In this document: piece after piece, positions 2,074-62,486 of the stretch
Layout of the letters: each line of letters opens with the position of its first letter
How positions within the stretch are numbered: position 1 is the stretch's first letter
NCBI GenBank assembly: GCA_964579265.1
Contig: CAZOFO010000002.1
Location: forward strand, 1 to 64,000
DNA: 64,000 nt
DNA from: Candidatus Micrarchaeota archaeon
Lineage (GTDB): Archaea; B1Sed10-29
Direction of reading: 5' to 3'
The notes under the pieces: model-generated
What the model saw: only the letters and a program-made list of their open reading frames with translations
Told to the model about the DNA's origin: nothing
Database searches by the model: none
Translations under genes and position numbers: made by a program

Positions 2074-2457
2074 GTGAACAAAGTGGAATTCAAAGAATTA
2101 AAAAAAATAATAGAAGAAATGAAAGAAGATAAAAGAAAGAAAATAGTAGAAGGAAAAAGAGACAAACAAGCATTAAACAAACTAGGAATAAAACAAGTGC
2201 AAACAATAAAAACAAAACCACTAAGACAAATAACAGGAAAGGAAAAAGACAAAGAAGTAATATTATTAACGGACTTCGACAAAACAGGAAAATCACGATC
2301 AAAAAAACTGATAAAACTCTACAAAGCAGAAGGAATCAAAACGGATTTAAAATACAAAAAAAGACTCGGAAAACTTCACGGAATATCCGAAATAGAAGAA
2401 CTACCGAGCAAATACAAAGAACTAAAAAATAAAAATAGAGGTGCTAAAAATGGCTAA
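2074..2457 (+). CDS. Small Toprim-domain protein (RNase M5-like/UPF0292-like)
   Basis: IIVEGKRD and VILLTDFDKTG Toprim motifs; lies next to dnaG. Confidence 0.8.
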   Translation: MNKVEFKELKKIIEEMKEDKRKKIVEGKRDKQALNKLGIKQVQTIKTKPLRQITGKEKDKEVILLTDFDKTGKSRSKKLIKLYKAEGIKTDLKYKKRLGKLHGISEIEELPSKYKELKNKNRGAKNG

Positions 2458-3601
2458 AACATACATAGATACAGTCAAATATCTTATCAAAGCAGACATA
2501 GAAGTTGACGGAATTGTAGAAAGACCAGACGTAGTAGGAGCAATATTTGGACAAACTGAAGGGTTACTAGGAGACGAACTTGACTTAAGAGAACTTCAAA
2601 AAAGCGGAAGAATAGGAAGAATAGAAGTAGAAATAGAAAACAAAATGGGAAAATCAATAGGAAAAATAAAAATACCCTCCAGTCTAGACGCAGATAAAAC
2701 ATCCGCAATAGCAGCAGCACTAGAACAAATAGAAAGAGTAGGACCATCAGAATCACATATAAAAGTAAAAGAAATAAAAGACACAAGAGAAAACAAAAGA
2801 GAAAAAGTACTAGAAAGAGCACAAGAACTAAGAAGCAAAATGATGGGAAAATCCAGACCAGAATCAAAAGAAATAAGCAAACAAATAAGAGAAGGAGTAA
2901 GAAGCAACGAAATACAAAAATACGGAGAAGAAAACCTAGCAGCAGGACCAAAAATAGATGAAGCAAAAGAAATAATAGTGACAGAAGGAAGAGCAGACGT
3001 ACTAAACCTTCTCAGAGCAAACATAAAAAACGTGATATGCCTACACGGAAAAAACATACCAGAAACAGTGAAAAAACTATCAAAAGAAAAGAAAACCACG
3101 CTATTCGTTGACGGAGACAGAGGAGGAGAACTCGTAGCAAAACAATTCGATACTGAAGCAGAACCAGACTACATAGCACAAGCCCCAGAAGGAAAAGAAG
3201 TAGAAGAACTAACCCAAAAAGAAATACTCCAAAGCCTAAGAAAAAAGAGGAAAAAAGACCAATGGATAAAAGAAAGAGACAACGGCAACTACAAAGAAAA
3301 GGACAGTAAAAAGAATAAAAGAAAAGGAAAATCGTTCGGAGAAGTAATGGAAAAACTCAAAGGAACAATGAAAGGAGCATTACTAGACAATAACGATCAA
3401 ATAATAGCAAAAATAGATGTGAAAGACCTAAAAGACGAGATAAAAAAACACGAAGACATAAAAGCCGCAGTATTCGATGGAATAATAACCCAGCAACTGA
3501 TAAACACAGCAAACAAAAACAATGTAAAGTACCTAGCAGGGAGAAAAAAAGGAAAAATCAAAAAAGAAAGAGGCATAAACCTCCTAACTTACCCTGATTG
3601 A
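2450..3601 (+). CDS. dnaG: Archaeal DnaG (exosome-associated)
   Basis: VERPDVVGAIFGQTEGLLG, TEGRADV, DGDRGG; start chosen after GAGGTG SD. Confidence 0.95.
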   Translation: MAKTYIDTVKYLIKADIEVDGIVERPDVVGAIFGQTEGLLGDELDLRELQKSGRIGRIEVEIENKMGKSIGKIKIPSSLDADKTSAIAAALEQIERVGPSESHIKVKEIKDTRENKREKVLERAQELRSKMMGKSRPESKEISKQIREGVRSNEIQKYGEENLAAGPKIDEAKEIIVTEGRADVLNLLRANIKNVICLHGKNIPETVKKLSKEKKTTLFVDGDRGGELVAKQFDTEAEPDYIAQAPEGKEVEELTQKEILQSLRKKRKKDQWIKERDNGNYKEKDSKKNKRKGKSFGEVMEKLKGTMKGALLDNNDQIIAKIDVKDLKDEIKKHEDIKAAVFDGIITQQLINTANKNNVKYLAGRKKGKIKKERGINLLTYPD

Positions 3602-18851: not shown

Positions 18852-20213
18852 ATGATTCAAATGGTTGATGAAGTTCTAGACAACTCAGAAAAAATAGTTG
18901 AAAAAATAACAAATGAGTCGGATTTATCAAAAGAAGAAGTAATGGAAAAGATAGAAGAAAAAAGAGAAAAATACGGAGGCCTACTAACAGAAGCAGGAGC
19001 AGCCTACTCAATAGCAAAAGACCTAGGGATAAAAGAAGAAGATTCAGATAAGAAAGAACTAAGAGGAACTGAAAAAATCAAAATAAAAGAAATAAATAAC
19101 GAACAAAAAAACGTAGATCTAGAAGCCCGAATAAAAAGAATATATGAAACTAGAGAATTTCAAAGAGAAGACAACAAAGGAAATGTAACTAATATAGAAA
19201 TAAAAGACGGAACAGGAGACATAAAAGCAACATTATGGAATAAAAAACCATTGATAGAAAAAATGGAAAAAAATACACCAATAGAAATAACTAATGGATA
19301 TGTAAAAGAGAGAAATGGAGATCTAGAAGTAAATGTAGGAAGTTATGGATCAGTAGAAATATTAGAAAACACCGAAATACCTGAAATAAACATCGAAGAA
19401 AAAAATATAGAAGAATTAGAACCTGAAATGGAAAACATAGATGTTTATGCCCGAGTAGAAAGAGTATTCCCAATAAATAAATTTACGAAGAACGAAGGAC
19501 AAGAAAACGAAAGAGAAGGAAAAGTTACTAATGCACTAATAAGAGACGGAACAGGGAAAACAAGACTAGTACTATGGGGAGAACAAGCAGAAAAAGTCCA
19601 AGAGCTTAATAAAAATGACCTTATAAAAATAGAAGGAGGATACACAAAAGACAGAGATAAATACAAAAGTGAAGATCAAATAGACACAGAAATACACGTA
19701 GGATGGAGAGGGAGGATAAAAATAAATCCAGAAAACACTGAAAAAGAAATACCAAAGATAGAAACAAAAAGAAAAACCATACCCGAAGTAAAAGAAATGG
19801 AAACAGGAGAAAACGCTTCGATAAAAGCAACAATAGTCCAAGCTTACGAACCAACAATCATACCAACATGCCCAGAATGCGGTTCAATGGCTAGAGAAAA
19901 AAAATGTAAAGAACACGGAGAAATAGAAGAACCAAAACACGTACCAATACTAAACATAGTAATAGACGACGGATCAGATACAATAAGAAGCACACTATAC
20001 AGAGAAAAGGCAGAAAAACTAATGGAAACAAAAGGAGAAGAACTAAAAGAAAACGAAGAAAAATTTAAAGAAGTAAAACAAAACATACTAGGACAAGAAA
20101 AAATATTCACAGGAAGAATAGAAGAAAATGAAGAATTCGACAGAAAAGAATTCACTATAAACTCCTTCCAAAAAATAGATGTCGAAGAAGAAATAGAAAA
20201 AATCAAAGATTAA
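18852..20213 (+). CDS. rpa: Replication protein A large subunit (multi-OB fold, Zn finger)
   Basis: GGLLTEAGAA N-terminus, repeated DGTG..LW OB folds, CPEC...CKEH. Confidence 0.88.
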   Translation: MIQMVDEVLDNSEKIVEKITNESDLSKEEVMEKIEEKREKYGGLLTEAGAAYSIAKDLGIKEEDSDKKELRGTEKIKIKEINNEQKNVDLEARIKRIYETREFQREDNKGNVTNIEIKDGTGDIKATLWNKKPLIEKMEKNTPIEITNGYVKERNGDLEVNVGSYGSVEILENTEIPEINIEEKNIEELEPEMENIDVYARVERVFPINKFTKNEGQENEREGKVTNALIRDGTGKTRLVLWGEQAEKVQELNKNDLIKIEGGYTKDRDKYKSEDQIDTEIHVGWRGRIKINPENTEKEIPKIETKRKTIPEVKEMETGENASIKATIVQAYEPTIIPTCPECGSMAREKKCKEHGEIEEPKHVPILNIVIDDGSDTIRSTLYREKAEKLMETKGEELKENEEKFKEVKQNILGQEKIFTGRIEENEEFDRKEFTINSFQKIDVEEEIEKIKD

Positions 20214-20284
20214 TACTCACAAATAAACAAAAAGAACGAAAACTAAAAAAATAATGAAGAACCTGAAAAATAAAGTGAACAAAA

Positions 20285-21232
20285 ATGACTGAAGAAATAA
20301 ATGAATTAGAAGACCTACCAGGAGTAGGAGAAGCAACCGCTGAAAAACTAAGAGAATCAGGATATAGAGACCTAGAATCAATAGCAGCAGCCTCAAGAGG
20401 AGACCTTGAAGAAAAAGCAGACATAGGAAAAAAAACTGCTCAAAAAGTAATAACAACAGCAAGAGAATCCTTAGATATAGGCTACGAATCAGCAAACGAA
20501 CTAATGGAAAAAAGAAAAAATGTAACTCATCTAACAACAAGCTCTGAAGAACTAGACGAACTTTTAGGAGGAGGAATAGAAACACAAGCAATAACAGAAG
20601 TATATGGATCAAATGCATCTGGAAAAACCCAATTATCCCTACAATTAGCAATAAACGCTCAAAAAGACAAAGAAGAAGGAGGACTAGGAAGAGGAGCACT
20701 ATACATAGATACGGAAAAAACCTTTAGACCAGAAAGAGTAAAACAAATGGCAGAAGCAGCAGACCTAGACCCAGAAGAAGCACTGGAAAAAATACAAGTA
20801 GCACAAGCATTCTCATCCGATCACCAAATATTACTTCTCGAAGAAGCTCCAAAAATAATAAAAGAAGAAAACATAGGACTAATAATAATAGACTCCCTAA
20901 CCGGAAAATTCAGATCCGAATACGCAGGAAGAGGACAATTAGCAGATAGACAACAAAAATTAAACAAACACCTACATAAACTGCAAGAAATAGCAGACGT
21001 ACATAACTTATCAGTATTAGTAACCAACCAAGTAATGAGCAACCCAGGAATGATGTTCGGAGACCCAACTACACCGATAGGAGGAAATATAGTAGGTCAC
21101 CAATCAACCACAAGAATCTATTTAAGAAAAGGAAAGAAAAACAAGAGAATAGCAAGACTTGTAGACTCACCATCATTACCCGAAGGAGAAGCAGTATTCC
21201 AAATCTCCTCAGAAGGAATAATAGATAAATAA
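20285..21232 (+). CDS. radA: DNA recombinase RadA
   Basis: LPGVG HhH, GSNASGKT, YIDTE, GRGQLADRQQKL. Confidence 0.97.
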   Translation: MTEEINELEDLPGVGEATAEKLRESGYRDLESIAAASRGDLEEKADIGKKTAQKVITTARESLDIGYESANELMEKRKNVTHLTTSSEELDELLGGGIETQAITEVYGSNASGKTQLSLQLAINAQKDKEEGGLGRGALYIDTEKTFRPERVKQMAEAADLDPEEALEKIQVAQAFSSDHQILLLEEAPKIIKEENIGLIIIDSLTGKFRSEYAGRGQLADRQQKLNKHLHKLQEIADVHNLSVLVTNQVMSNPGMMFGDPTTPIGGNIVGHQSTTRIYLRKGKKNKRIARLVDSPSLPEGEAVFQISSEGIIDK

Positions 21233-45626: not shown

Positions 45627-45651
45627 TGTAGTGCCTAATGTAGTGCCTAAA
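45627..45651 (+). repeat. Two abutting TGTAGTGCCTAA copies
   Basis: TGTAGTGCCTAA-TGTAGTGCCTAAA. Confidence 0.92.
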
Positions 45652-45870
45652 TCAAAGATTTGGAAAAAATTAAGAAAAAGGAAAGTAAAAGTGTCAGACC
45701 GCCTATCATTCTTCATCGGTGCCGCGGGATCCTCAGAATTAAAGGAATCATCATCCACATATATTTTGATTTTACCTTTTTATATAAGGGTGATACTAAA
45801 GAAATACATAGAAAGAAAAACAAAAAATTCAATTTCTCTTTGTTTTTAGATGTTTTAAATAATACTATAA

Positions 45871-45945
45871 AGCGGGATAGGGCAGCCTGGAGTGCCCGAC
45901 AGGCTCATAACCTGTAGGTCGGAGGTTCAAATCCTCTTCCCGCTA
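45871..45945 (+). tRNA. Initiator tRNA-Met(CAT)
   Basis: A1-T72 (AGCGGGA/TCCCGCT); GGGC/GCCC D-stem; ACAGG-CTCATAA-CCTGT. Confidence 0.93.
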
Positions 45946-46095
45946 TTTTAAATTTATTGATATGAGTCAATGATGATTATAATTGGAAAAAAGAATTTTA
46001 TGAATGAAGATTGAGAATATTTTGAGTTATTTTAGAAAGATTTGAATCTAGATAATTTGAATTAATTGTTAGTATTTCAAAAGAAAAAATTAAAT

Positions 46096-46208
46096 GAAAT
46101 AGGGGGTCACTTCCGGTATTGTAATTTGTTTATTTCACTAAAAGAACTGATTATATTAGTTTTTCAAATATTTTTCATCAGAGAGTGGCACCCCTGTTCC
46201 AGTATTAA
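46096..46208 (-). promoter_or_regulatory. Two ORB-like boxes (AATACCGGAAGTGA..., AATACTGGAACAGGGGTG)
   Basis: GC-rich islands in AT-rich DNA; match boxes at 47637 and 47930 in the opposite orientation. Confidence 0.55.
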
Positions 46209-46472
46209 CTATTTTTGGTTAGAAATAGATAATTTTTAATTTTAAAAAACAGTTCAAATTGTTTTTAATTATGTTTTAGAATATTAAAATCTTTATCTAA
46301 AGTATTGGAATAATATAATGTGTTTATTTTTTTATTAAAGGAAAATTAAGTTATTTGGATGTTTTTAGTTTATTAAGATGAAGTTATAATAATATAATAC
46401 ATAAATATATTTGTATAATATTTGCAGGAGTATTGAGTGTGTGTAATGTAAACTTGATTCTAGTAATATTAT

Positions 46473-47123
46473 TTATTTAGAAAGAGTTTTAATAAATTTA
46501 ACTGCTTCATCTATATTTGAATCAAAAGGAAAGTCTTCTAAAATTGGTTCAACTTCATCTGAATATTCTAATGCTCTTTCGAGTAGTTTCGACTCTTTTT
46601 CATTAAATCCTTTACTATGGATCTTTACTCTTATTTTACCTTTATTCTTTTCATTATTGTAACAATAAAAAAGATTCAAAATTTTCCAGAAGAAGTTTTT
46701 TATTTCTTTTTCTTCTAAAAATCTATAGAACATAGCTGTTAGATTTAAATTAACATCTTTTAGTACTGGTAGATTGTAAAATTGTGATTCTTCTGATAAA
46801 TAAAAGAAGTTTATTTGATATAATTCTTTTAAATTGCGTGGTTTTCTTTTTCTTTCTTTTTCATACTCTTTTTTTAGTAATTCTCTTGCTGAATCCCATA
46901 TTTCATCTTCTTCAGTGTATTTAACAATTAAATTTTTTTCTAATAGATCTTTTAACACTTTTTCCCTTATTCTATTAACTACTCTGTATGGATTGGTATT
47001 TGGATAGAAATCAGGAACTTCTTCTTTTAATTTTCTAACTATAGAAACTGGTGTTCTTGGTACTGGATATCTTAAGTAGTTTAAAGTTTCTTTCTTTGCT
47101 TTATTTATATTATAATTTACCAT
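46473..47123 (-). CDS. Hypothetical protein (possible wHTH N-terminus)
   Basis: 216-aa AT-rich ORF; PRTPVSIVRKL...RIREKVLKDLLEKNLIVK. Confidence 0.6.
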   Translation of the reverse strand: MVNYNINKAKKETLNYLRYPVPRTPVSIVRKLKEEVPDFYPNTNPYRVVNRIREKVLKDLLEKNLIVKYTEEDEIWDSARELLKKEYEKERKRKPRNLKELYQINFFYLSEESQFYNLPVLKDVNLNLTAMFYRFLEEKEIKNFFWKILNLFYCYNNEKNKGKIRVKIHSKGFNEKESKLLERALEYSDEVEPILEDFPFDSNIDEAVKFIKTLSK

Positions 47124-47266
47124 TATTTCATTTCTTTATTTTGAAATAATTGTTATTATCCTAGTATTTAATGTTACATAAAACATGTAAGTTAAAATAC
47201 TTTATTTTCGATATTTTCAAAGTGTTCAGAAAGAAGAAACTAAAAAGGCTTTAAACTACTTTTTAT

Positions 47267-47560
47267 TTAGATTGAAGGTTTAATTGGTGGTTCTTCCGTA
47301 TTTTCTTTTTTATTATTCTTTGTTATATTACTTCCAAGTAGAACTATATCTCCTACTGATTCTACTCTATCGTATTTTATACTATCTTCTTTCATTATTC
47401 TTCTTAGTTCTCTTTTTCCAACATTCTTTAGTTCTTCTGTTATTAATCTTACTGCTTCTCCTTCTTCTGTGTCTATTACTATATCGTTTACTGTTCCAAG
47501 GAGTTCGCCTCCTTTTGAATAGATTGGTTTACCGTATATTTCTGATATTTTATTTGTCAT
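47267..47560 (-). CDS. PRC-barrel protein (CdpB-like)
   Basis: IYGKPIYSKGGELLGTVNDIVIDTEEG...IKYDRVESVGDIVLL. Confidence 0.88.
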   Translation of the reverse strand: MTNKISEIYGKPIYSKGGELLGTVNDIVIDTEEGEAVRLITEELKNVGKRELRRIMKEDSIKYDRVESVGDIVLLGSNITKNNKKENTEEPPIKPSI

Positions 47561-47636
47561 ATTTATCAAAATCTAAAAAGTACTCTTTACTTAAATACTT
47601 TTTCCTTGGTTTACTAGAAATCACACTGGAAAAAAG

Positions 47637-47659
47637 TAATACTGGAAGTAAGGGGTCAC
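47637..47659 (+). promoter_or_regulatory. ORB-like box TAATACTGGAAGTAAGGGGTCAC
   Basis: Repeat of the family at 46.1-46.2 kb and 47.93 kb. Confidence 0.55.
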
Positions 47660-47674
47660 TGAGATATTTATACT

Positions 47675-47686
47675 TGTAGTGCCTAA
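47675..47686 (+). repeat. TGTAGTGCCTAA copy between TATA-like TTTATA and start of 56-aa ORF
   Basis: Exact copy; TTTATA at 47667-47672, ATG at 47702. Confidence 0.9.
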
Positions 47687-47701
47687 GAATTTATGATAGA
47701 A

Positions 47702-47872
47702 ATGGTTTATGTGAGAAAGAAAAAAATAAATGGAAACGAATATTGGTACGCTTCGAAGACTAAAAGGAAAGATGGGAAGGTTAAACAGGAAACAGTTGCT
47801 TATATAGGCCCATGTAGAAAAATAAACTATGGAGAAGCTAAAAAAATAGCTAGGGAAAAATCGGAAGACTAA
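47702..47872 (+). CDS. 56-aa basic putative beta-sheet DNA-binding protein (not in ORF track)
   Basis: MVYVRKKKINGNEYWYASKTKRKDGKVKQETVAYIGP resembles the K-x-I-x-G-x-x-Y-x-Y...GKV...Y-(I/L)-G pattern of IS1634 N-termini and archaeal viral proteins. Confidence 0.7.
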   Translation: MVYVRKKKINGNEYWYASKTKRKDGKVKQETVAYIGPCRKINYGEAKKIAREKSED

Positions 47873-47929
47873 AAGAGTTATCATTATATTTAATTTAAAT
47901 ACTATTTATTTCCATTTTTATAGTTTAAG

Positions 47930-47953
47930 AATACTGGAAGTGAGGGGGTGTCA
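47930..47953 (+). promoter_or_regulatory. ORB-like box AATACTGGAAGTGAGGGGGTGTCA
   Basis: TGGAA core followed by a G-string. Confidence 0.55.
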
Positions 47954-48013
47954 TACTATTTAAATTTTTTCCAAAGTAATAGCATAGAAAATGTTTAGAT
48001 CCTTTCAAAACTT

Positions 48014-48598
48014 TCATTTACCCTCAAAATTTAATAATTCTTCTTTATCCATATTAAGTCGATAGAAGACTTTTCTACCTACTCTTTTCTTAGAAAGGTA
48101 ATTAGCTTTAAATAAGGTATTTAATAGTTCTGAACATCTATTACGGCTTAGTCCGAGTTCTTCTGATAATTCTGAAGAATCTAATTCTCCTTTTTCTCCA
48201 ACTATCTCAAGTATCTGTCGAAGTCTAGGCGACAGATTCGACACTTTTCGAGACTTTGTCGAGACCTGTCGCGACTCATCTCGACCTTCTAGATCTTCAT
48301 TTTTACTTATTTCAACCATCCAATCTAGCATATCTTCGTATAATTCTTTTATTTCTAATAGTTCATCTATTTTTTTATTCATTTCCCAGAGTAATTCTCT
48401 TTCTTGTATGGTTTTCTCCTTCTTACTATCTTCTTTTAGTTTTTGAACTGTTAAAGCTCCTTCTTCTGATTTTTCATAGTTTTTATTAGTAGAATTAGCT
48501 TCTTTATCTTCTATTAGCTTCTTTTTTTCTTTTTTAAGATCTTTATCTTCTTTTTCGTTTTTGAATAGAGATTTGAGAAAAGGGAACAGACCCCTCAC
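48014..48598 (-). CDS. Coiled-coil plus C-terminal winged-helix protein
   Basis: LSPRLRQILEIV..ELDSSELSEELGLSRNRCSELLNTL..YLSKKRVGRKVFY. Confidence 0.8.
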   Translation of the reverse strand: MRGLFPFLKSLFKNEKEDKDLKKEKKKLIEDKEANSTNKNYEKSEEGALTVQKLKEDSKKEKTIQERELLWEMNKKIDELLEIKELYEDMLDWMVEISKNEDLEGRDESRQVSTKSRKVSNLSPRLRQILEIVGEKGELDSSELSEELGLSRNRCSELLNTLFKANYLSKKRVGRKVFYRLNMDKEELLNFEGK

Positions 48599-48687
48599 CC
48601 CCTGCGTCGCTCTGCGGCACTATCTATGATTATTATCTCACACATACTTAAATACTTTTGGTTGTTTTTCTCTTTCATATACTCCAA

Positions 48688-48966
48688 TGTAGTGCCTAAA
48701 AATTTCTTTTAATTGGATTTTCTCTATTCTAGTATAATTTACTCACGTGTAGTGCCTAAAATTATTTCTTTTTAGCTCCTCACACACCCCTAACCTTCCT
48801 ATTTTCATCATTTCACTGTATTTGCCTTGGATCCATCCAAAATTCCTCACGTGTAGTGCCTAAAACCGCTGTTTTTTAGCATTTTTGAAGGTATGTAGGG
48901 GGATCTTTAGCTTTACTTCTTGTTTTTTCCTGGTTTTTGTTTTTCTTCTTACATGTAGTGCCTAAA
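48688..48966 (+). repeat. Array of four direct TGTAGTGCCTAAAA copies (48688, 48748, 48852, 48954)
   Basis: Spacing 60/104/102 bp; two copies extend to CTCACGTGTAGTGCCTAAAA; followed by a T-rich tract. Confidence 0.92.
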
Positions 48967-49225
48967 ATATCTCTATTTCTGTTGATTCTCATTTTTTTGT
49001 TTTTTCTGAATTTCTTCTTTTTTCAGATTTTTTCTTTTGATTTTGAATTTTTTGTTTTGCTCTCACGTTTTTTCCATTCTCTTGTTAACTATGTTTTATA
49101 TTATCTTGTTTAATTGTTTTTTGTTGTATTTTTGCAGATATCAAACTTATTTATTATTACATATTATAAGTTTTTGAATACAAAGGTTTAAATATAATAA
49201 ATGTTTTTTATATGTTAGAATCGAG

Positions 49226-49552
49226 GTGATACCTATGTTAACCCCCATTTTCTTTAAGGAAAAACCAGTGCGAGCCCTTGCCTCTTTGGCCAATGATGAC
49301 AAAGCTTGGTACGCTTCCTTATTAGCAAAGGAAATAGACTGTACTCGCCCACATATGAATAATATCTTAGATAAATTCCATAAACATAATTTAATAGAGA
49401 CTGAAGAAGAAGGAAGGATAAAAAGGATATCTCTAACATCTCAAGGCGAGGATTTAGCAATAGAATTCCAAAATTTGCTTAGAAGAATGGAAAGAATTGA
49501 TGAAAAATCTCAAATGGAGCCAGAGAGCGAAGGGGAATCAGATGAAGAATAA
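49226..49552 (+). CDS. MarR-like winged-helix protein
   Basis: KPVRAL..YASLLAKEIDCTRPHM..LDKF..LIETEEEGRIKRISLT.QG. Confidence 0.85.
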   Translation: MIPMLTPIFFKEKPVRALASLANDDKAWYASLLAKEIDCTRPHMNNILDKFHKHNLIETEEEGRIKRISLTSQGEDLAIEFQNLLRRMERIDEKSQMEPESEGESDEE

Positions 49553-50246
49553 TGAAAATCTTAAAACCCGATACGCTACTTTGGATGATGTGCCTAAGTT
49601 ACTGGACCACCCCGGAGAATTTGAATTCTCTACAAAATATTTGCATGAAGCGATTAGATCCAGTAGACAAGGTATAATTATTTTAGAGGAAAATGAAGAA
49701 ATAAAAGCATTTGTACATGTTAGAAGAGGAGCAGAAGGAATTAAAATAGATAGTTACGGGTTTAGAAATAAAGAAGAAATAATTAAGCTACTTTCAGAAG
49801 TTGAATCTCTGACTATTGATCTTCCAATATACATATATGTTGATAAAAAGGATAAAGATATTTCTTTATTCAAAAAAGCAGGGTATAAAGAAGAATTAGA
49901 AACAGAAGACGGACAAGTAAAGCTGGTTAAACCTTGGTTGAAGATCCACGAAGACCGTAAAAAAGAACTGATATTTAAAGAAAAAGCTGAAGAAGCTAGA
50001 AAACAGCATGAGAAGATTTATCCTATATCCAAAGGCAGAATAAGTAATCTTGAATCTAATCTAATAATTTTAGAGAAAATAATAGAAGAAATGAGAGAAG
50101 AAGAGAAGGAAGAATCTTCTGATACGTCTAAGGAATCTAAAATGGAAAAGAAAGAGGATTTAGTCTCTTGTCCTATATGTGGAGATGAATTCGAAACTGA
50201 AAGAGGTATGAAAATCCATAAGACGAAAATGCACGGTTCTTCTTGA
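49542..50246 (+). CDS. Degenerate GNAT-like domain plus C-terminal C2H2 zinc finger
   Basis: RYATLDDVP...LFKKAGY; CPICGDEFETERGMKIHKTKMH. Confidence 0.65.
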   Translation: MKNNENLKTRYATLDDVPKLLDHPGEFEFSTKYLHEAIRSSRQGIIILEENEEIKAFVHVRRGAEGIKIDSYGFRNKEEIIKLLSEVESLTIDLPIYIYVDKKDKDISLFKKAGYKEELETEDGQVKLVKPWLKIHEDRKKELIFKEKAEEARKQHEKIYPISKGRISNLESNLIILEKIIEEMREEEKEESSDTSKESKMEKKEDLVSCPICGDEFETERGMKIHKTKMHGSS

Positions 50247-50247
50247 T

Positions 50248-50682
50248 TTATTCTTTTTTCTTTTTACTTATCTTTTTTTGTCTTTTGTGTATAGTTTCCC
50301 AACAGTTTGCTATCTCTTTTAACGTTTTGCTAAATTCCAAGGTTGTATGTATCCCTTTTTCCTGGGTTTTCTTTATCAATCCTCTTCTTTTCAGCATAGG
50401 GATCACCTTGTTCTGTATTGTAGATTTAGAATGTCCTTTCTCTTCTGTTAAGTGTTTCATTAATTCTTTTCTAGGTACTCCTTGGAAATTTTCTGGTTCC
50501 AACAAGTAATTTATCAGGTCTTTAGCTACTTCAGTAGATACTGGGTTAACATGGCTTGGATATATGTGTTCTATTATGTCTTCGGTTATTACGTGGTCCT
50601 TTTGTAGTTCTGTTGATGCTGATTCTAGATATAAGGCATTTTTTCTATTTATTTTTGCTGAATATTCTGGTGGTTTTGCCAT
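50248..50682 (-). CDS. Putative winged-helix protein
   Basis: GHSKSTIQNKVIPMLKRRGLIKK..LEFSKTL..ANCW; GAGGTGA SD. Confidence 0.65.
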   Translation of the reverse strand: MAKPPEYSAKINRKNALYLESASTELQKDHVITEDIIEHIYPSHVNPVSTEVAKDLINYLLEPENFQGVPRKELMKHLTEEKGHSKSTIQNKVIPMLKRRGLIKKTQEKGIHTTLEFSKTLKEIANCWETIHKRQKKISKKKKE

Positions 50683-50901
50683 TTTTTCACCTCTTTATTT
50701 TAATTTATATTTATCACACTGTTCCGGTATAAATTTGTTTTGGTTGTTGGTTTTTTCGGTGTTTTCCCATGTTTTTCGATTGTTTAGGCGAGGGTTCTGG
50801 GTAGAAAAACATTCATACACACCGGGCCCGTGTGTTGTTGTGTTCTTCTGAATTTGTCTCTTCAGATTCGTTATACTGGTTCGGTGTGATATAATTTGTT
50901 A

Positions 50902-51681
50902 TTATAGATGTGTTAGTTTATTTCCATAATACCATAGTAGGTAGATTAGTAGACCTACTAAGAAGAATATGATGAATAGTGGAACTAAGAACCCCATTAT
51001 AGGTACGCCTGTTGCTCTTTTCACCGGATCTGTTTCAGGGTGTTCTTCCGGATAAGGTTCTTCTAAAAGTTCTTCTTCCTCTTCTTCAGTTAGGTTTAAT
51101 GCTTCTTCTTCCATTGCTTGTTCTGTTTGCATATGTTCAGGAGGAGTTATTTCTCCTCTCATTGTTGTTGCTGCTATGAAGATTGCTGTTATTAAGAATC
51201 CGAGTATTATGATGATTGAGATTGGTTTCAGTACTTTTGGTTTTTTGACTTTTCTTTCTTTTTGTAGTTCTCTTTCTCTTTCTTCTTCTATCTGGGTTTT
51301 TGAGTCTTTTGGTCTTATATCCTCTACTTCGCTTGCAGGAATTTGTACTTTAACTGATCCTTCGTATCCACAGTCTTTGCAGTAGAATTTATTTGGTGCT
51401 CCTAGGCCTATTATTGTTTTTACTGATCTAGAATCCATTGAAGCGTATTCTAACCTTGGGCTACCACAACTAGGGCAGATTTGAACTTTTTTACCTTCTT
51501 TCTTTTCTTGCTCTTTAGTCTTTTTTTCTTTTTCCTTCTTCTGCTTTTCTTCTTGTTTTTTAGCCTTTTTTTCCTTTTCTTTCTCTTCTTTTTCATCTTC
51601 TTTATCGTGTACTCTTGCTTTGTGGATCTTAACGCCTCTTTCATTCTTTAATTCTTTCCCACATATGTCACATTTGGCCAT
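50902..51681 (-). CDS. N-terminal C2H2 finger, K/E linker, Cys4 Zn ribbon, two-TM membrane protein
   Basis: CDICGKELKNERGVKIHKARVH; CPSCGS...CKDCGY; two hydrophobic helices. Confidence 0.75.
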   Translation of the reverse strand: MAKCDICGKELKNERGVKIHKARVHDKEDEKEEKEKEKKAKKQEEKQKKEKEKKTKEQEKKEGKKVQICPSCGSPRLEYASMDSRSVKTIIGLGAPNKFYCKDCGYEGSVKVQIPASEVEDIRPKDSKTQIEEERERELQKERKVKKPKVLKPISIIIILGFLITAIFIAATTMRGEITPPEHMQTEQAMEEEALNLTEEEEEELLEEPYPEEHPETDPVKRATGVPIMGFLVPLFIIFFLVGLLIYLLWYYGNKLTHL

Positions 51682-52070
51682 GCTTAACTCCTTACTTATG
51701 ATAGTGGAGCGTATAATAAAAGCTTATCCCTACTTTTTCTTGTTTTACCCTTGCTTCCCGTCCATTGATAATATGTATTTTATAAAATGTATTTTAATAT
51801 AAGGCCAAAAACACGATAATTATAATTTAAATTATAAAATAAAGTTTAAAGAAAATCGATGTTATTCTCTAATATGTATAATGGATTTTATAAAAAATAG
51901 TTTCGGCGGATCAGGCCGGAGAAAATGAAATCTCTACAAAGTAATTGCAAAGAGGGTTTTCCACCTGATTTACCCTTGTTAGAATTTGCGGTTGAAATTC
52001 TAGGGTCTCACGTTTCGAAAATTAGTCATGAGTCTTCTGGAGCTGGTGTGAAAAGGGTGAAAACCGGGTT

Positions 52071-52083
52071 TTTAGGCACTACA
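52071..52083 (-). repeat. TGTAGTGCCTAA copy forming the last codons (C-S-A-stop) of the GNAT-PssA gene
   Basis: TTTAGGCACTACA on the + strand. Confidence 0.85.
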
Positions 52084-53202
52084 TTCTTCTTTTTCTTCTC
52101 CTTCTTCCAGTTGAACCGGTTCTATAGGGAACTTGATGTGGCTTACCATTAATAGGCTTATCAAAAATGTGATTAATATCACTGGGTAGAATCCGGGAGA
52201 AAGGAAGTAAATTACTGGATAAAGTACTCCTGTAGCTGTCCCTGGGAGACCTATAAAGTGCTTTCCATTCGGTTCTCTTGTTTGGAATCTAGCTAATCTA
52301 AGCACTTCAGCTATAAGTATGGATAATGCTGAGGCGTGAAGTAAAACAGTTTGAACCAAATTCTGAGGATTTAACCACGTCAATAGTAATATAGCAGGTG
52401 CTGCTCCGAATGAAACCAGGTCTGCTATATCTATTCTTTTCCCAAATTCTGTAGGTTTTGAGATCCTCCTCGCTACTTCTCCATCGAGCACGTCCATCGT
52501 TACTGCCAGTATCAGGAAGGATGATCCCGCTGTAAATCTTCCTTGAATGAATAGAAAGATTGAATAGATTCCGAAAACAGAGTTTAGGAGTGATATTATG
52601 TCTTTTCCCATCATGAAGTTGGTTATTTTGTTCTTTTTAGACATCCTTGGCATTCTTTCTTTCTCTATCCCTATCGATTCTAGGTATTTTTCTAGATCGT
52701 AAAATTCTTTTAGAGGGTGCGTGCTTCCTTTTTCAACCCCTAGTCTTTTCCCTAGTATCATAACAGTGTTCTCTGGTAATGGTTTTGGACTTATCTTTTC
52801 CAGGACTTTCCTCACTCTTGTTTTTTTGAATGTATTCTCTCCTAATTCTTCGATTATAGTATGATATCCTCTTTTCTTGTGTAAATTTAATGAAATTTCA
52901 TTTTCTCTGTGTATCCCTATCAGACAGATCTTTGCTCCTTTTTCTTCTAATCTCTCCTCCATTTTTTCTTCTAGATATTCTCCTGCTCCTTGTCCTCTCC
53001 AATTTTCCTTGATAAATAATGCTCCCATGCTCCCTATCTTCTTGAAGAATGTTTGGATGTACCCGCATCCGATTGTATATCCTTCGTGTTTCAGTAGAAA
53101 GTACTCTCTTTTTTCTGAATTTTTTCCTGGGCTCGTGATGTAAGGGTGATTGGAGCACATTCCTTCAATTTTCTCTACTTCTTCTGTTCTTTCGACTTTC
53201 AT
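52072..53202 (-). CDS. GNAT acetyltransferase fused to CDP-alcohol phosphatidyltransferase (PssA/archaetidylserine synthase-like)
   Basis: LFIKENWRGQGAG..N..SL.LH.KRGY; DVLDGEVARR..FG..D.AD.VSFGAAP; LRLARF, FIGLP, LMVS. Confidence 0.8.
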   Translation of the reverse strand: MKVERTEEVEKIEGMCSNHPYITSPGKNSEKREYFLLKHEGYTIGCGYIQTFFKKIGSMGALFIKENWRGQGAGEYLEEKMEERLEEKGAKICLIGIHRENEISLNLHKKRGYHTIIEELGENTFKKTRVRKVLEKISPKPLPENTVMILGKRLGVEKGSTHPLKEFYDLEKYLESIGIEKERMPRMSKKNKITNFMMGKDIISLLNSVFGIYSIFLFIQGRFTAGSSFLILAVTMDVLDGEVARRISKPTEFGKRIDIADLVSFGAAPAILLLTWLNPQNLVQTVLLHASALSILIAEVLRLARFQTREPNGKHFIGLPGTATGVLYPVIYFLSPGFYPVILITFLISLLMVSHIKFPIEPVQLEEGEEKEECSA

Positions 53203-61082: not shown

Positions 61083-62486
61083 TTATTCTAACTGCTTCTT
61101 TATTCTTTGATTACTTATCTCTATGAATTTTTCTGTATTCTCTTCAGGTATTGTGGCTCCTGCGGCTACGTCGTGTCCTCCACCTTCTCCTTTTGTTTCT
61201 TCTGCGGCTTTGTGGAATGCTTCTCCAAGGTTCAGTCCTTTTTCAACTAATTCTTTTGTTCCTCTTCCGCTTATCTTTACTTCATTTTCTTCTTTTTCGG
61301 CCATCCCTATTATTGGTTTGTCTCTCTTTACTTCGTCCGTTGAGTACAGCATTCCAAGGACTATACCTATTATTGATGGTTCTATGTTTCCTTTAGAGTC
61401 GAGCAGATAAGTTGTTTCTTTTTTCTCTATTCCTTTATCCTTGGCGTACTTTATCCCTTTGCTCAGTTTTCTTCTGTGTCTTCTGAGCATCTTGACTGCT
61501 TCGTCCATCGCTTCGTCTCTGTCACCCATGTTTATTTTTACTCCTAGTTCCGGTCTTTCGTGTCTTCCACAGGCATTGAGTATTGTGCTGTATTCCTTTC
61601 CGTCTTTCAATGGTGATTTCTTCGGCTCTTTCTTTAATTCGTATACTTCTCCTATCAGGTTCCTAAGCACTGTTTCGGGTACTCCGTTTCTCCTGCCGTA
61701 GACATGTAGTCCGGATATCAGTCTCTTTTTTTCCTCTAGATCTAATTCGCAGTAGTATCTGGATTTTCCTTCTCCATTTTTGAGATCTATATCTAGGTTT
61801 TTTAGGAATCTGACGCAGTTGTTTCTTTCTCCTGTCAGCCCGGGTAGATATGGGTAGGTTGAATAGGTTAGGAATGAAACTAGGTCCCGTGAATGTCTTC
61901 CGAATAAAGTTATGTCCATTCTTCTTTCTATCTCTTCTGCTTCTTCTCCTTCTTCCAGTATCTCTCTGTTTAATCCCACTAGTCTGTTTTCTTCATTACT
62001 ATACTGCATGTCTCCAAGTGCTCCGACTATTCCTACTTTTGATAGGTCCTTGTTTTTCTCATCTATTTCTCTGGCTACGGCGTAGCTTAACCCGGATGAA
62101 CTTATTTCGCTGGATCCGTCTACTCCTGAGAGATGCGGGTTCAGGTGTGGTTTTTCCGTTTCTCCTTCTATCTCGTGGTGGTCTATTATGCAGTACTCTC
62201 CGTTTGTTATCTCTTTTTTTAACATGTCGAGGTATCCTGATCCAAAGTCTATTAGTATGAATGGATTGGAGTTGTAGTGTTTCTTGAATTCTTTTAATTC
62301 TTCCTTTGAGAAATGCTGCAGAGTGTGGGCTTCGTATTCTTTACCCATTCTCTCCAGTGTTTTTCTTATTATTCCACCGGCTGATAAACCGTCTGCATCG
62401 TAGTCGTTAAGAACTATGAAGTTGTCTTTTTCTTCTATGAATTCTACTACTTCTTTTAATCCTTCTAGGTTTTCGAGTTTCTTCAT
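61083..62486 (-). CDS. RecJ-like DHH phosphoesterase (GAN-like)
   Basis: DADG, DFGSG, IDHH, NACGR, GGGHDVAAG. Confidence 0.9.
   Translation of the reverse strand: MKKLENLEGLKEVVEFIEEKDNFIVLNDYDADGLSAGGIIRKTLERMGKEYEAHTLQHFSKEELKEFKKHYNSNPFILIDFGSGYLDMLKKEITNGEYCIIDHHEIEGETEKPHLNPHLSGVDGSSEISSSGLSYAVAREIDEKNKDLSKVGIVGALGDMQYSNEENRLVGLNREILEEGEEAEEIERRMDITLFGRHSRDLVSFLTYSTYPYLPGLTGERNNCVRFLKNLDIDLKNGEGKSRYYCELDLEEKKRLISGLHVYGRRNGVPETVLRNLIGEVYELKKEPKKSPLKDGKEYSTILNACGRHERPELGVKINMGDRDEAMDEAVKMLRRHRRKLSKGIKYAKDKGIEKKETTYLLDSKGNIEPSIIGIVLGMLYSTDEVKRDKPIIGMAEKEENEVKISGRGTKELVEKGLNLGEAFHKAAEETKGEGGGHDVAAGATIPEENTEKFIEISNQRIKKQLE

Follow-up and report, generated by a model that had tools for sequence, protein, structure and literature searches.

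Does a locus without a cdc6 gene mark the point at which chromosome replication starts in this archaeon, or the point at which it ends? The locus lies at 45,627–52,083 of the window, the 64,000-bp stretch analyzed here (positions 1–64,000 of contig CAZOFO010000002.1, C2:1-64000), which belongs to a Candidatus Micrarchaeota genome (G000) of 760,915 bp in 41 contigs, 91% complete and with about 35% GC. It carries short boxes of the origin recognition box (ORB) type and, between them, the genes of a PRC-barrel protein and of a 216-residue winged-helix protein, named p216 here. We searched 41 genomes, namely 31 of the same class (G000 among them) and 10 outgroups, fetched the p216 loci of relatives (n = 20) for comparison of genes and boxes, and searched the window proteins against the families of Pfam, NCBIfam and PHROGs. 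According to this analysis, the locus is a fixed replication point across the class and most likely an origin, although its strand bias points as it would for a terminus.

Initiator-type boxes enclose an AT-rich tract and two genes

The ORB-like boxes reported by a first-pass annotation of this DNA are present, four in number and of the AATACYGGAAGTRAGGGG type, and span 46.10–47.95 kb of the window. Boxes 1 (46102..46120) and 2 (46187..46206) lie on the minus strand, where they read AATACCGGAAGTGACCCCC and AATACTGGAACAGGGGTGCC, the former being a C-string variant in which the G-run is inverted; boxes 3 (47638..47659, AATACTGGAAGTAAGGGGTCAC) and 4 (47930..47953, AATACTGGAAGTGAGGGGGTGTCA) lie on the plus strand. 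A regular-expression search of the whole 760,915-bp genome gave no other match to the G-string forms, and the C-string variant recurs in three of the relatives' loci (L030, L031 and L040). The boxes share 15 of 21 ungapped positions with the ORB found upstream of cdc6 in one outgroup genome (G038; CTCCACAGGAAGCAATGGGGTGTC), and in our own comparison they have the TGGAA core and the G-string in common with the euryarchaeal consensus, printed as GTTCCAGTGGAAAC-AAA----GGGGG in Norais 2007.

Boxes 2 and 3 are 1.4 kb apart and enclose a 17%-GC tract together with the p216 and PRC-barrel genes. The tract, a candidate duplex-unwinding element (DUE), covers 259 bp between box 2 and the 3′ end of p216 (46214..46472), and its GC content falls to a minimum of 12.5% over 80 bp. 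It belongs to a longer non-coding tract at 45946–46472 with 17–32% GC, and a second such tract, of 627 bp, is found at 48599–49225, which confirms the unusually long intergenic tracts noted earlier. p216 is encoded on the minus strand (46473..47123) and combines an N-terminal winged helix (residues 1–115) with a C-terminal helical domain. Upstream of it, also on the minus strand, lies the PRC-barrel gene (47267..47560; 97 aa from the ATG), the product of which matches PF05239 with an E-value of 1.5e-9 and 38.2 bits, against a cut-off of 21.2. On the other side of the boxes, a tRNA-Met(CAT) gene is detected at 45871..45945 on the plus strand (ARAGORN; 61.3 bits in Rfam).

Boxes, p216 and neighboring genes are conserved across the class

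With at most one mismatch, the box pattern TACYGGAAGTRAGGGG was matched 35 times, in 20 of the 31 in-class genomes, and never in the 10 outgroups, while the reversed control gave 6 matches. In the genomes where p216 was found, 20 of 30 matches fall within 3.5 kb of it. Among the fetched loci, a box lies at most 3 kb from p216 in 18 of 20, and p216 is bracketed by a (−)...(+) pair of boxes in nine, as it also is in the window. In the window, as in seven of 19 loci from relatives, a 100-bp GC minimum is found 69–229 bp past the 3′ end of p216; in G023, the minimum beside p216 is 19% within a locus of 54% GC.

The first-pass annotation had suggested a comparison of gene order and boxes in relatives, and the boxes indeed prove to be kept with the same genes across the class. 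In 12 of the 20 loci a tRNA-Met gene is found no more than 1.6 kb from p216, and the PRC-barrel protein has a tblastn match in 16 (in 10 of them no further than about 310 bp from p216). All three genes, p216 included, are syntenic between families. Over a larger distance, contigs from two families (G008:C1 and G011:C2) show near-perfect collinearity of gene order for about 200 kb, which indicates that the gene layout around the locus is old. Family f2 is a partial exception, as its best boxes stand upstream of aIF5A on other contigs and its p216 keeps only degenerate boxes. The aIF5A loci of this family (L019, G013:C4; L020, G015:C3; L021, G006:C6; L022, G016:C33) have one or two perfect boxes and adjoin a 3-methyladenine-glycosylase-like gene; their boxes may represent Orc1-controlled promoters.

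p216 was found in 21 of the 31 in-class genomes, including all 11 that are at least 90% complete, and in none of the 10 outgroups. Its family has just 41 cluster representatives among 1.84 billion proteins, all with E < 1e-10, and no Pfam, NCBIfam or PHROG match was obtained. The AlphaFold2 (AF2) model of p216, with a predicted local distance difference test (pLDDT) score of 92.4, matches generic winged helices at Z 7–8. A PDB profile search with the whole protein as query returned nothing below E = 0.18, Foldseek gave no match in the PDB at E ≤ 0.001, and the scores in the protein atlas (at most 0.86) are leads only. Across the class, p216 is 27–41% identical and Cdc6 57–62%; since the box is near-invariant and Cdc6 evolves more slowly than p216, Cdc6 is the likelier reader of the box. 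The PRC gene of the locus is one of five in the genome. A complex prediction for p216 and the PRC-barrel protein, both entered as alignments, scored 0.00 with a mark of 0.32 and is uninformative either way.

cdc6 is encoded elsewhere

As the first-pass annotation had stated, no integrase, transposase, Cdc6 or ParA family of Pfam, NCBIfam or PHROGs is matched at 45627–52083. The single Cdc6 gene of G000, identified by its Cdc6_C match, is on contig C3 and not on the contig of the window. In six of six genomes with both genes on one contig, cdc6 lies 20–42 kb from p216. An origin beside cdc6 was sought in seven genomes, where the gap between cdc6 and the adjoining sepF-like gene (about 60–160 bp; 161 bp in G000) leaves no room for one and contains no repeats. 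This back-to-back, divergent gene pair (C3:4883-6603 in G000, with a sepF-like product of about 117 aa) was present in 7/7 genomes examined and is a conserved link between a replication and a division gene.

Several other replication genes are close to the locus: RPA, RadA, a DHH-CID protein of the RecJ/GAN type, ThyX and GlyA are all encoded within 30 kb of it. Toprim (DnaG-like) proteins, RPA, RadA and the DHH-CID protein are encoded at 2074–3601, 18852–21232 and 61083–62486 of the window, and ThyX and GlyA at 53.9–56.5 kb.

Strand composition switches at the locus in relatives

To follow strand composition, we calculated the GC skew of each gene with the coding-strand effect removed, scanned each contig for the best change-point and compared it with 200 permutations. 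In five of nine in-class contigs, from five families, the best change-point falls less than 7 kb from the locus. No permutation did as well (0/200) in G023 (change-point at 100.7 kb, locus at 97.9 kb), G011 (21.4 and 20.8 kb), G008 (210.4 and 207.8 kb) and G015 (225.6 and 219.0 kb), and 5 of 200 did in G022 (36.6 and 37.0 kb). The switch at the locus is seen at four-fold degenerate sites as well. The raw cumulative GC skew of the window is uninformative because gene strand dominates it.

In the near-complete G011, the switch at the locus is the sharpest (t = 8.3) and the skew fades more than 100 kb away. The opposite switch of this genome is weak and diffuse, and its surroundings, searched for another box cluster and for repeats of other kinds, gave chance matches only. 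A TTGGAAAGTGGGG pair in G011 was rejected as a repeat site, being coding sequence of a LESG peptide repeat in a 515-aa gene. The 16S rRNA gene of G011 was likewise withdrawn as a pointer to a terminus, the opposite change-point falling inside the rRNA operon itself; G015:C2 has no clean switch at its rRNA operon. Two further features of the G011 contig C2 were recorded, namely that 76% of its genes are on one strand and that its end (G011:C2:230385-230470) carries a repeat of at least 24 nt with a 66-bp period, which looks like a CRISPR array.

A model of the locus as an origin

We give the core of the locus, at 45.87–47.95 kb, an even chance of being the chromosomal replication origin of this DPANN lineage. 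In the model that we infer for its binding partners, unwinding site and fork direction, Orc1/Cdc6, encoded at a distance (on C3 here), would bind the four ORB-like boxes. Boxes 2 and 3 would point outward in an ORB(−)/DUE/ORB(+) arrangement, with the helicase loaded between them and the DNA opened at the 17%-GC tract at 46.21–46.47 kb. The unit held between the boxes would then be a PRC-barrel/p216 operon, and not cdc6 as at textbook origins. p216 may act as an origin-bound accessory or regulator, the expression of which would be tied to origin occupancy. Judged by titles and abstracts, our literature searches turned up no paper on the origins of this lineage or on a PRC/winged-helix gene pair inside an origin.

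A dispersed 12-mer and the right-hand gene cluster

The first-pass annotation had counted a 12-mer array among the motifs of the locus. The 12-mer, TGTAGTGCCTAA, is clearly enriched, with 12 matches at no more than one mismatch in the window against 0.18 expected (0/100 shuffles reach 12), but it is dispersed over the genome and not specific to an origin. Eight of its 17 exact copies in G000 lie within 45627–52083. These are a tandem pair at 45627..45650 (+), about 220 nt upstream of tRNA-Met; a copy at 47675..47686 (+), 15 nt before the ATG of a 56-aa gene and at the matching place in G004 and G005; four copies in the 627-bp gap upstream of the gene for a 108-aa winged helix-turn-helix (wHTH) protein, starting at 48688, 48748, 48852 and 48954 (48688..48965, +); and an inverted copy at 52072..52083 (−), which makes up the last three codons (Cys-Ser-Ala) and the stop of a fused GNAT-archaetidylserine synthase gene (52072–53202).

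Outside the locus, where copies are found at C1:96496, C2:26947, 38995 and 40148, C9:13892, C11:9318 and C19:4843, seven of nine are intergenic and aimed at a same-strand open reading frame (ORF) 18–148 nt downstream, so that at least seven other promoters of the genome carry the motif in a fixed orientation. Being oriented, intergenic and upstream of ORFs, the 12-mer is a promoter-proximal element of a family-specific regulon. The ORFs behind it include Rpp21 and aTrm56 (Pfam) and, as named from their translations, a RaSEA-ArcS fusion, a DRG-like GTPase, a small zinc-ribbon protein and others, which hints at a regulon centered on tRNA processing. Exact copies number 17, 18 and 32 in three genera (G000, G004 and G005), many of those in G005 being spaced by 32 or about 50 bp. 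Two incomplete genomes of the same genus have 3 (G002) and 1 (G003), and the 26 other in-class genomes 0 or 1. One outgroup, G037, has 4 exact copies on four contigs against about 0.25 expected by our estimate. An 11/12 match in the origin region upstream of cdc6 in G038 (L167, G038:C1:105704) was set aside as probably due to chance, one-mismatch counts in five outgroups being close to those of controls.

The 56-aa protein (p56; 47702..47872, +) is a candidate binder of the 12-mer. It is confined to family f1, with 5 clusters only, and its ORF is intact, with homologs 64–84% identical. Its AF2 model (pLDDT 87.2) has strands at residues 2–9, 12–23 and 26–37 and a helix at 43–55. The best VIA match of this model is the arm-binding domain of the HPI integrase (3jtz; Z 5.7, root mean square deviation 2.9, 51 residues aligned), followed by modest matches to the AP2 domain 6sy0 (Z 4.2) and to 1z1b (Z 3.4), and Foldseek gave none at E ≤ 0.001. 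The model is a three-stranded antiparallel sheet on a C-terminal helix, and the matches, modest in Z, suggest a fold of the integrase-arm/AP2 type. Given their shared distribution, the position of the 12-mer before the gene and the predicted fold, the 12-mer is probably the site of p56.

The other gene products of this region agree with the first-pass annotation in kind: besides the PRC barrel and p56, we find two wHTH proteins (194 and 108 aa), a 144-aa protein that is a weak winged-helix candidate and two C2H2 proteins. The 194-aa protein (48014..48598, −) has a C-terminal wHTH of the ArsR/MarR type (HTH_24, 6.8e-6; NF033788, 1.2e-9). The phased GTCGNGAC repeats, which had been proposed as a third family of cis-acting motifs, turned out to be part of its gene: there are two exact copies (48258 and 48268; 6 in the genome) within repeats at 48238–48276, and they encode a Ser/Arg-rich linker that is kept in three orthologs. 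The 108-aa protein (49226..49552, +) has weak winged-helix family matches and a tblastn match in 16 of the 20 loci. It is followed by a protein of about 234 aa that carries a C2H2 finger at its C terminus (49542..50246, +; start uncertain between 49497, 49500 and 49542; zf-C2H2_4, E 0.0045, below the cut-off), with orthologs in G004, G008 and G009. The 144-aa candidate (50248..50682, −) has matches below the cut-offs to DUF7399 (0.002) and F-93_WHD (0.036) and an ortholog in G004 only among the 20 loci. The 259-aa protein (50902..51681, −) has a C2H2 finger at its N terminus, along with a zinc ribbon and a pair of hydrophobic segments; its match to DUF7838 (2.5e-4) stays below the cut-off, and it has orthologs in 7 of 20 loci. 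Both C2H2 proteins had been described as membrane proteins; judged from the translations, membrane-like hydrophobic segments are present in this one, but the other has none.

The two C2H2 fingers are paralogous and lie on opposite strands (50175–50235 and 51606–51666; 61 nt, 70% complementary). Part of the 234-aa gene (49604–49645) also recurs in non-coding DNA at 51.9 kb (51908–51949; 42 nt, 81% identity), where it looks like a gene fragment. To the left of tRNA-Met, a candidate C/D-box small RNA at 45692–45758 (−) reads ATGATGA ... CTGA ... ATGAAGA ... CTGA and has weak Rfam matches to sR5 (23.9 bits, E 0.029, below gathering), sR2 and sR23. We conclude that 47.6–52.1 kb is a family-specific cluster of small DNA-binding proteins outside the origin machinery. 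The single module that the first-pass annotation had envisaged, coupling origin recognition, anchoring and division, is not supported: its 12-mer, small-protein and wHTH part is family-specific and the 12-mer is a promoter-proximal motif found genome-wide.

Origin, terminus or neither

Several observations weigh against an origin at this locus. The boxes lack the left half of the canonical ORB dyad, and the perfect boxes upstream of aIF5A in four family f2 genomes come with no skew switch. The skew check suggested at first pass showed a sharp switch in relatives, but none in the window's own contig (left −0.030, n = 46; right −0.036, n = 37; p = 0.97); G019 and G006 have no significant switch either, and the best change-point of G018 is elsewhere than the locus. 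The polarity contradicts an origin too. The switch runs from + to − in every informative contig, which means that the leading strand would be C-rich if the locus were an origin, and at the cdc6-adjacent AT-rich gap of outgroup G035, where genes diverge, both GC and TA skew have the opposite, standard sign (9 vs 66 genes). The tRNA genes of the class lie on the corrected G-rich strand by 41 to 14. The L2 ribosomal-protein cluster, about 86–106 kb off, is transcribed toward the locus in G008 and G015, by our tallies about 53–61% of genes in G011, G023 and G008 share this direction, and more than 50 kb out genes mostly face the locus in G011, G023, G015, G020 and G006. Under the co-orientation rule, a + to − skew, such tRNA strands and this direction of the ribosomal-protein operon are marks of a terminus. 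An inverted skew at proven origins is described for haloarchaea in the part of Norais 2007 that treats it. It is documented for haloarchaea only, and the class as a whole has no acidic proteome (median protein pI 6.6 in G000, 8.6–9.1 in relatives).

The same observations on polarity are the case for a replication terminus with a fork trap, at which a protein on the oppositely oriented boxes would arrest converging forks. The bound protein would be p216, encoded between its own sites, or Orc1, and replication would in truth start at another site, perhaps within an assembly gap. Taking the G035 gap as the reference for polarity, the switch fits a terminus both over whole genes and at four-fold sites, and so do the tRNA strands and the L2 operon; over the 100 kb to the right of the locus in G011, 74,180 coding bases run toward it and 22,395 away, and the switch is sharp, as a trap would produce. 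The layout also resembles that of Bacillus subtilis, where the rtp gene adjoins inverted Ter sites and RTP is a winged-helix protein. However, the boxes resemble ORBs and are laid out as ORB/DUE/ORB, cdc6 and several replication genes stay near the locus, and within ±20 kb 62% of coding bases face away from it (sum over 10 contigs). Inverted skew also occurs at proven origins of haloarchaea. In the near-complete G011, no other ORB-like cluster was found, not even around its weak opposite switch, and that switch is diffuse whereas an origin should be sharp. No specific match to a terminator protein is among the fold matches listed for p216, and we know of no archaeal fork trap. We regard a terminus as an unlikely explanation, and it is to the same limited degree conceivable that the inverted boxes and the embedded p216 form a sequence-defined fork trap at a fixed archaeal terminus, possibly derived from Orc1-type sites.

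That the locus is an origin with p216 itself as the reader of the boxes, a lineage-specific winged-helix initiator like WhiP in a replicator-initiator pair replacing a cis-encoded cdc6, seems to us doubtful. p216 does lie next to the boxes or between them in 18 of 20 loci, is found in every in-class genome at least 90% complete, is restricted to the class with this box form and has a winged helix, and replicator-initiator pairing is given as the rule in archaea in a passage of the Wu 2014 review. But the box matches Orc1-type ORBs, and Sulfolobus oriC3 has, according to the same passage, neither a classic ORB nor a miniORB. p216 also evolves much faster than the box and Cdc6, and family f2 has its best boxes away from it. 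Moreover, p216 has one winged helix, not two as WhiP and Cdt1 have, and no Cdt1 family match. Still less probable is a locus that is neither origin nor terminus, in which the boxes would titrate Orc1 or control transcription of the PRC-p216 operon and its neighbors and the switch would be a coincidence of chromosome-arm structure. The single perfect boxes before aIF5A, at which there is no skew switch, indicate that boxes can occupy ordinary promoters, a downstream ORB cluster regulates the origin in Haloarcula according to the part of the Wu 2014 review concerned, and G000, G019 and G006 show no switch at the locus. Nevertheless, the change-point meets the locus in five contigs of five families with the same sign, no permutation being as good in four of them, which makes chance unlikely. 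An integrated element decayed at tRNA-Met, with the inverted 12-mers at 45627 and 52083 as its ends and p56 as a remnant of an integrase arm-binding domain, is largely refuted and to our mind scarcely credible. The inverted copies, the drop of GC to 23–28% at 45–48 kb and the best fold match of p56 (Z 5.7) would suit it. Against it, no integrase or transposase family was found in Pfam, NCBIfam or PHROGs; the tRNA-Met, the boxes and the p216, PRC and 108-aa wHTH genes are syntenic across many families, which makes the tRNA a conserved neighbor and not an integration scar; PIMT and a LamG protein border the same side of the region in both G004 and G005; the 12-mer, with 17–32 copies per genome, is spread over many contigs and mostly precedes housekeeping genes; and the p56 ORF is intact and conserved.

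Comparison with known systems

If it is an origin, the locus is closest to origins of the oriC1 type (Sulfolobus oriC1, Pyrococcus oriC, Haloferax oriC1), which have an ORB(−)/DUE/ORB(+) arrangement bound by Orc1/Cdc6. It shares with them inverted boxes that have a TGGAA core and G-string and are separated by an AT-rich tract, occurrence at one locus per genome and, in relatives, a strand-composition switch. It differs in that its initiator gene is 20–42 kb off instead of adjacent, the PRC-barrel and p216 genes stand between boxes 1.4 kb apart, the boxes have no left dyad half and include a C-string variant, and the skew sign is opposite to the standard. An ORB/DUE/ORB arrangement without a neighboring cdc6 is drawn for the oriC of Hyperthermus butylicus in a figure legend of the Ori-Finder-Arch preprint; unlike that oriC, as the legend gives it, the locus has a class-specific winged-helix gene where the initiator gene would be. 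A non-Cdc6 winged-helix gene tied to origin-type DNA is also known from Sulfolobus oriC3 and its Cdt1-related initiator WhiP, as far as the cited passage of the Wu 2014 review goes. p216, with its single winged helix and helical domain, differs from WhiP and Cdt1, and no sequence or specific fold link to them was found.

Opposed short sites beside the gene of a small DNA-binding protein, at a place where G-rich strands and many genes converge, are also features of the bacterial RTP-Ter (Bacillus subtilis) and Tus-Ter (Escherichia coli) systems, but the sites of the locus look like initiator boxes. Neither RTP nor Tus is among the fold and sequence matches listed for p216, which are dominated by generic winged helices. 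As a second short motif found near the locus and genome-wide, the 12-mer recalls the Sulfolobus ucm motif. That motif is, in the sections concerned of Dhanaraju et al. 2025 (PMC12141716), short, non-palindromic, present near an origin and at many other sites, and read by UBP, a small β-hairpin protein that binds a 12-nt duplex as a monomer. The 12-mer differs from it in sitting at promoters, and its pairing with p56 is a prediction; in Foldseek, UBP chain 9eff_B ranks 33rd against the p56 model (E 1.6, TMq 0.29). The PRC protein is small and single-domain like the division protein CdpB of Haloferax, a likeness by domain only. PRC genes have been placed in neighborhoods of translation, RNA-processing or cell-division genes by a study (10.1101/2023.03.28.534520) the main text of which uses neither "replication" nor "winged".

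What the locus means for DPANN replication

As far as our literature searches show, the start and finish of replication in DPANN archaea are experimentally unstudied. The locus provides a precise, class-wide landmark for them, with 19-bp initiator-type boxes, the universally retained p216 between these and a PRC-barrel protein as conserved partner. Should it prove to be the origin, these archaea would have uncoupled the origin from cdc6 and inserted a new winged-helix factor into it, and most of their tRNA genes and their ribosomal-protein operon would run head-on to replication, in breach of a rule regarded as general. Should it prove to be the terminus, archaea would possess a fork trap defined by sequence, the first one in this domain to correspond to the RTP/Tus-Ter systems of bacteria.

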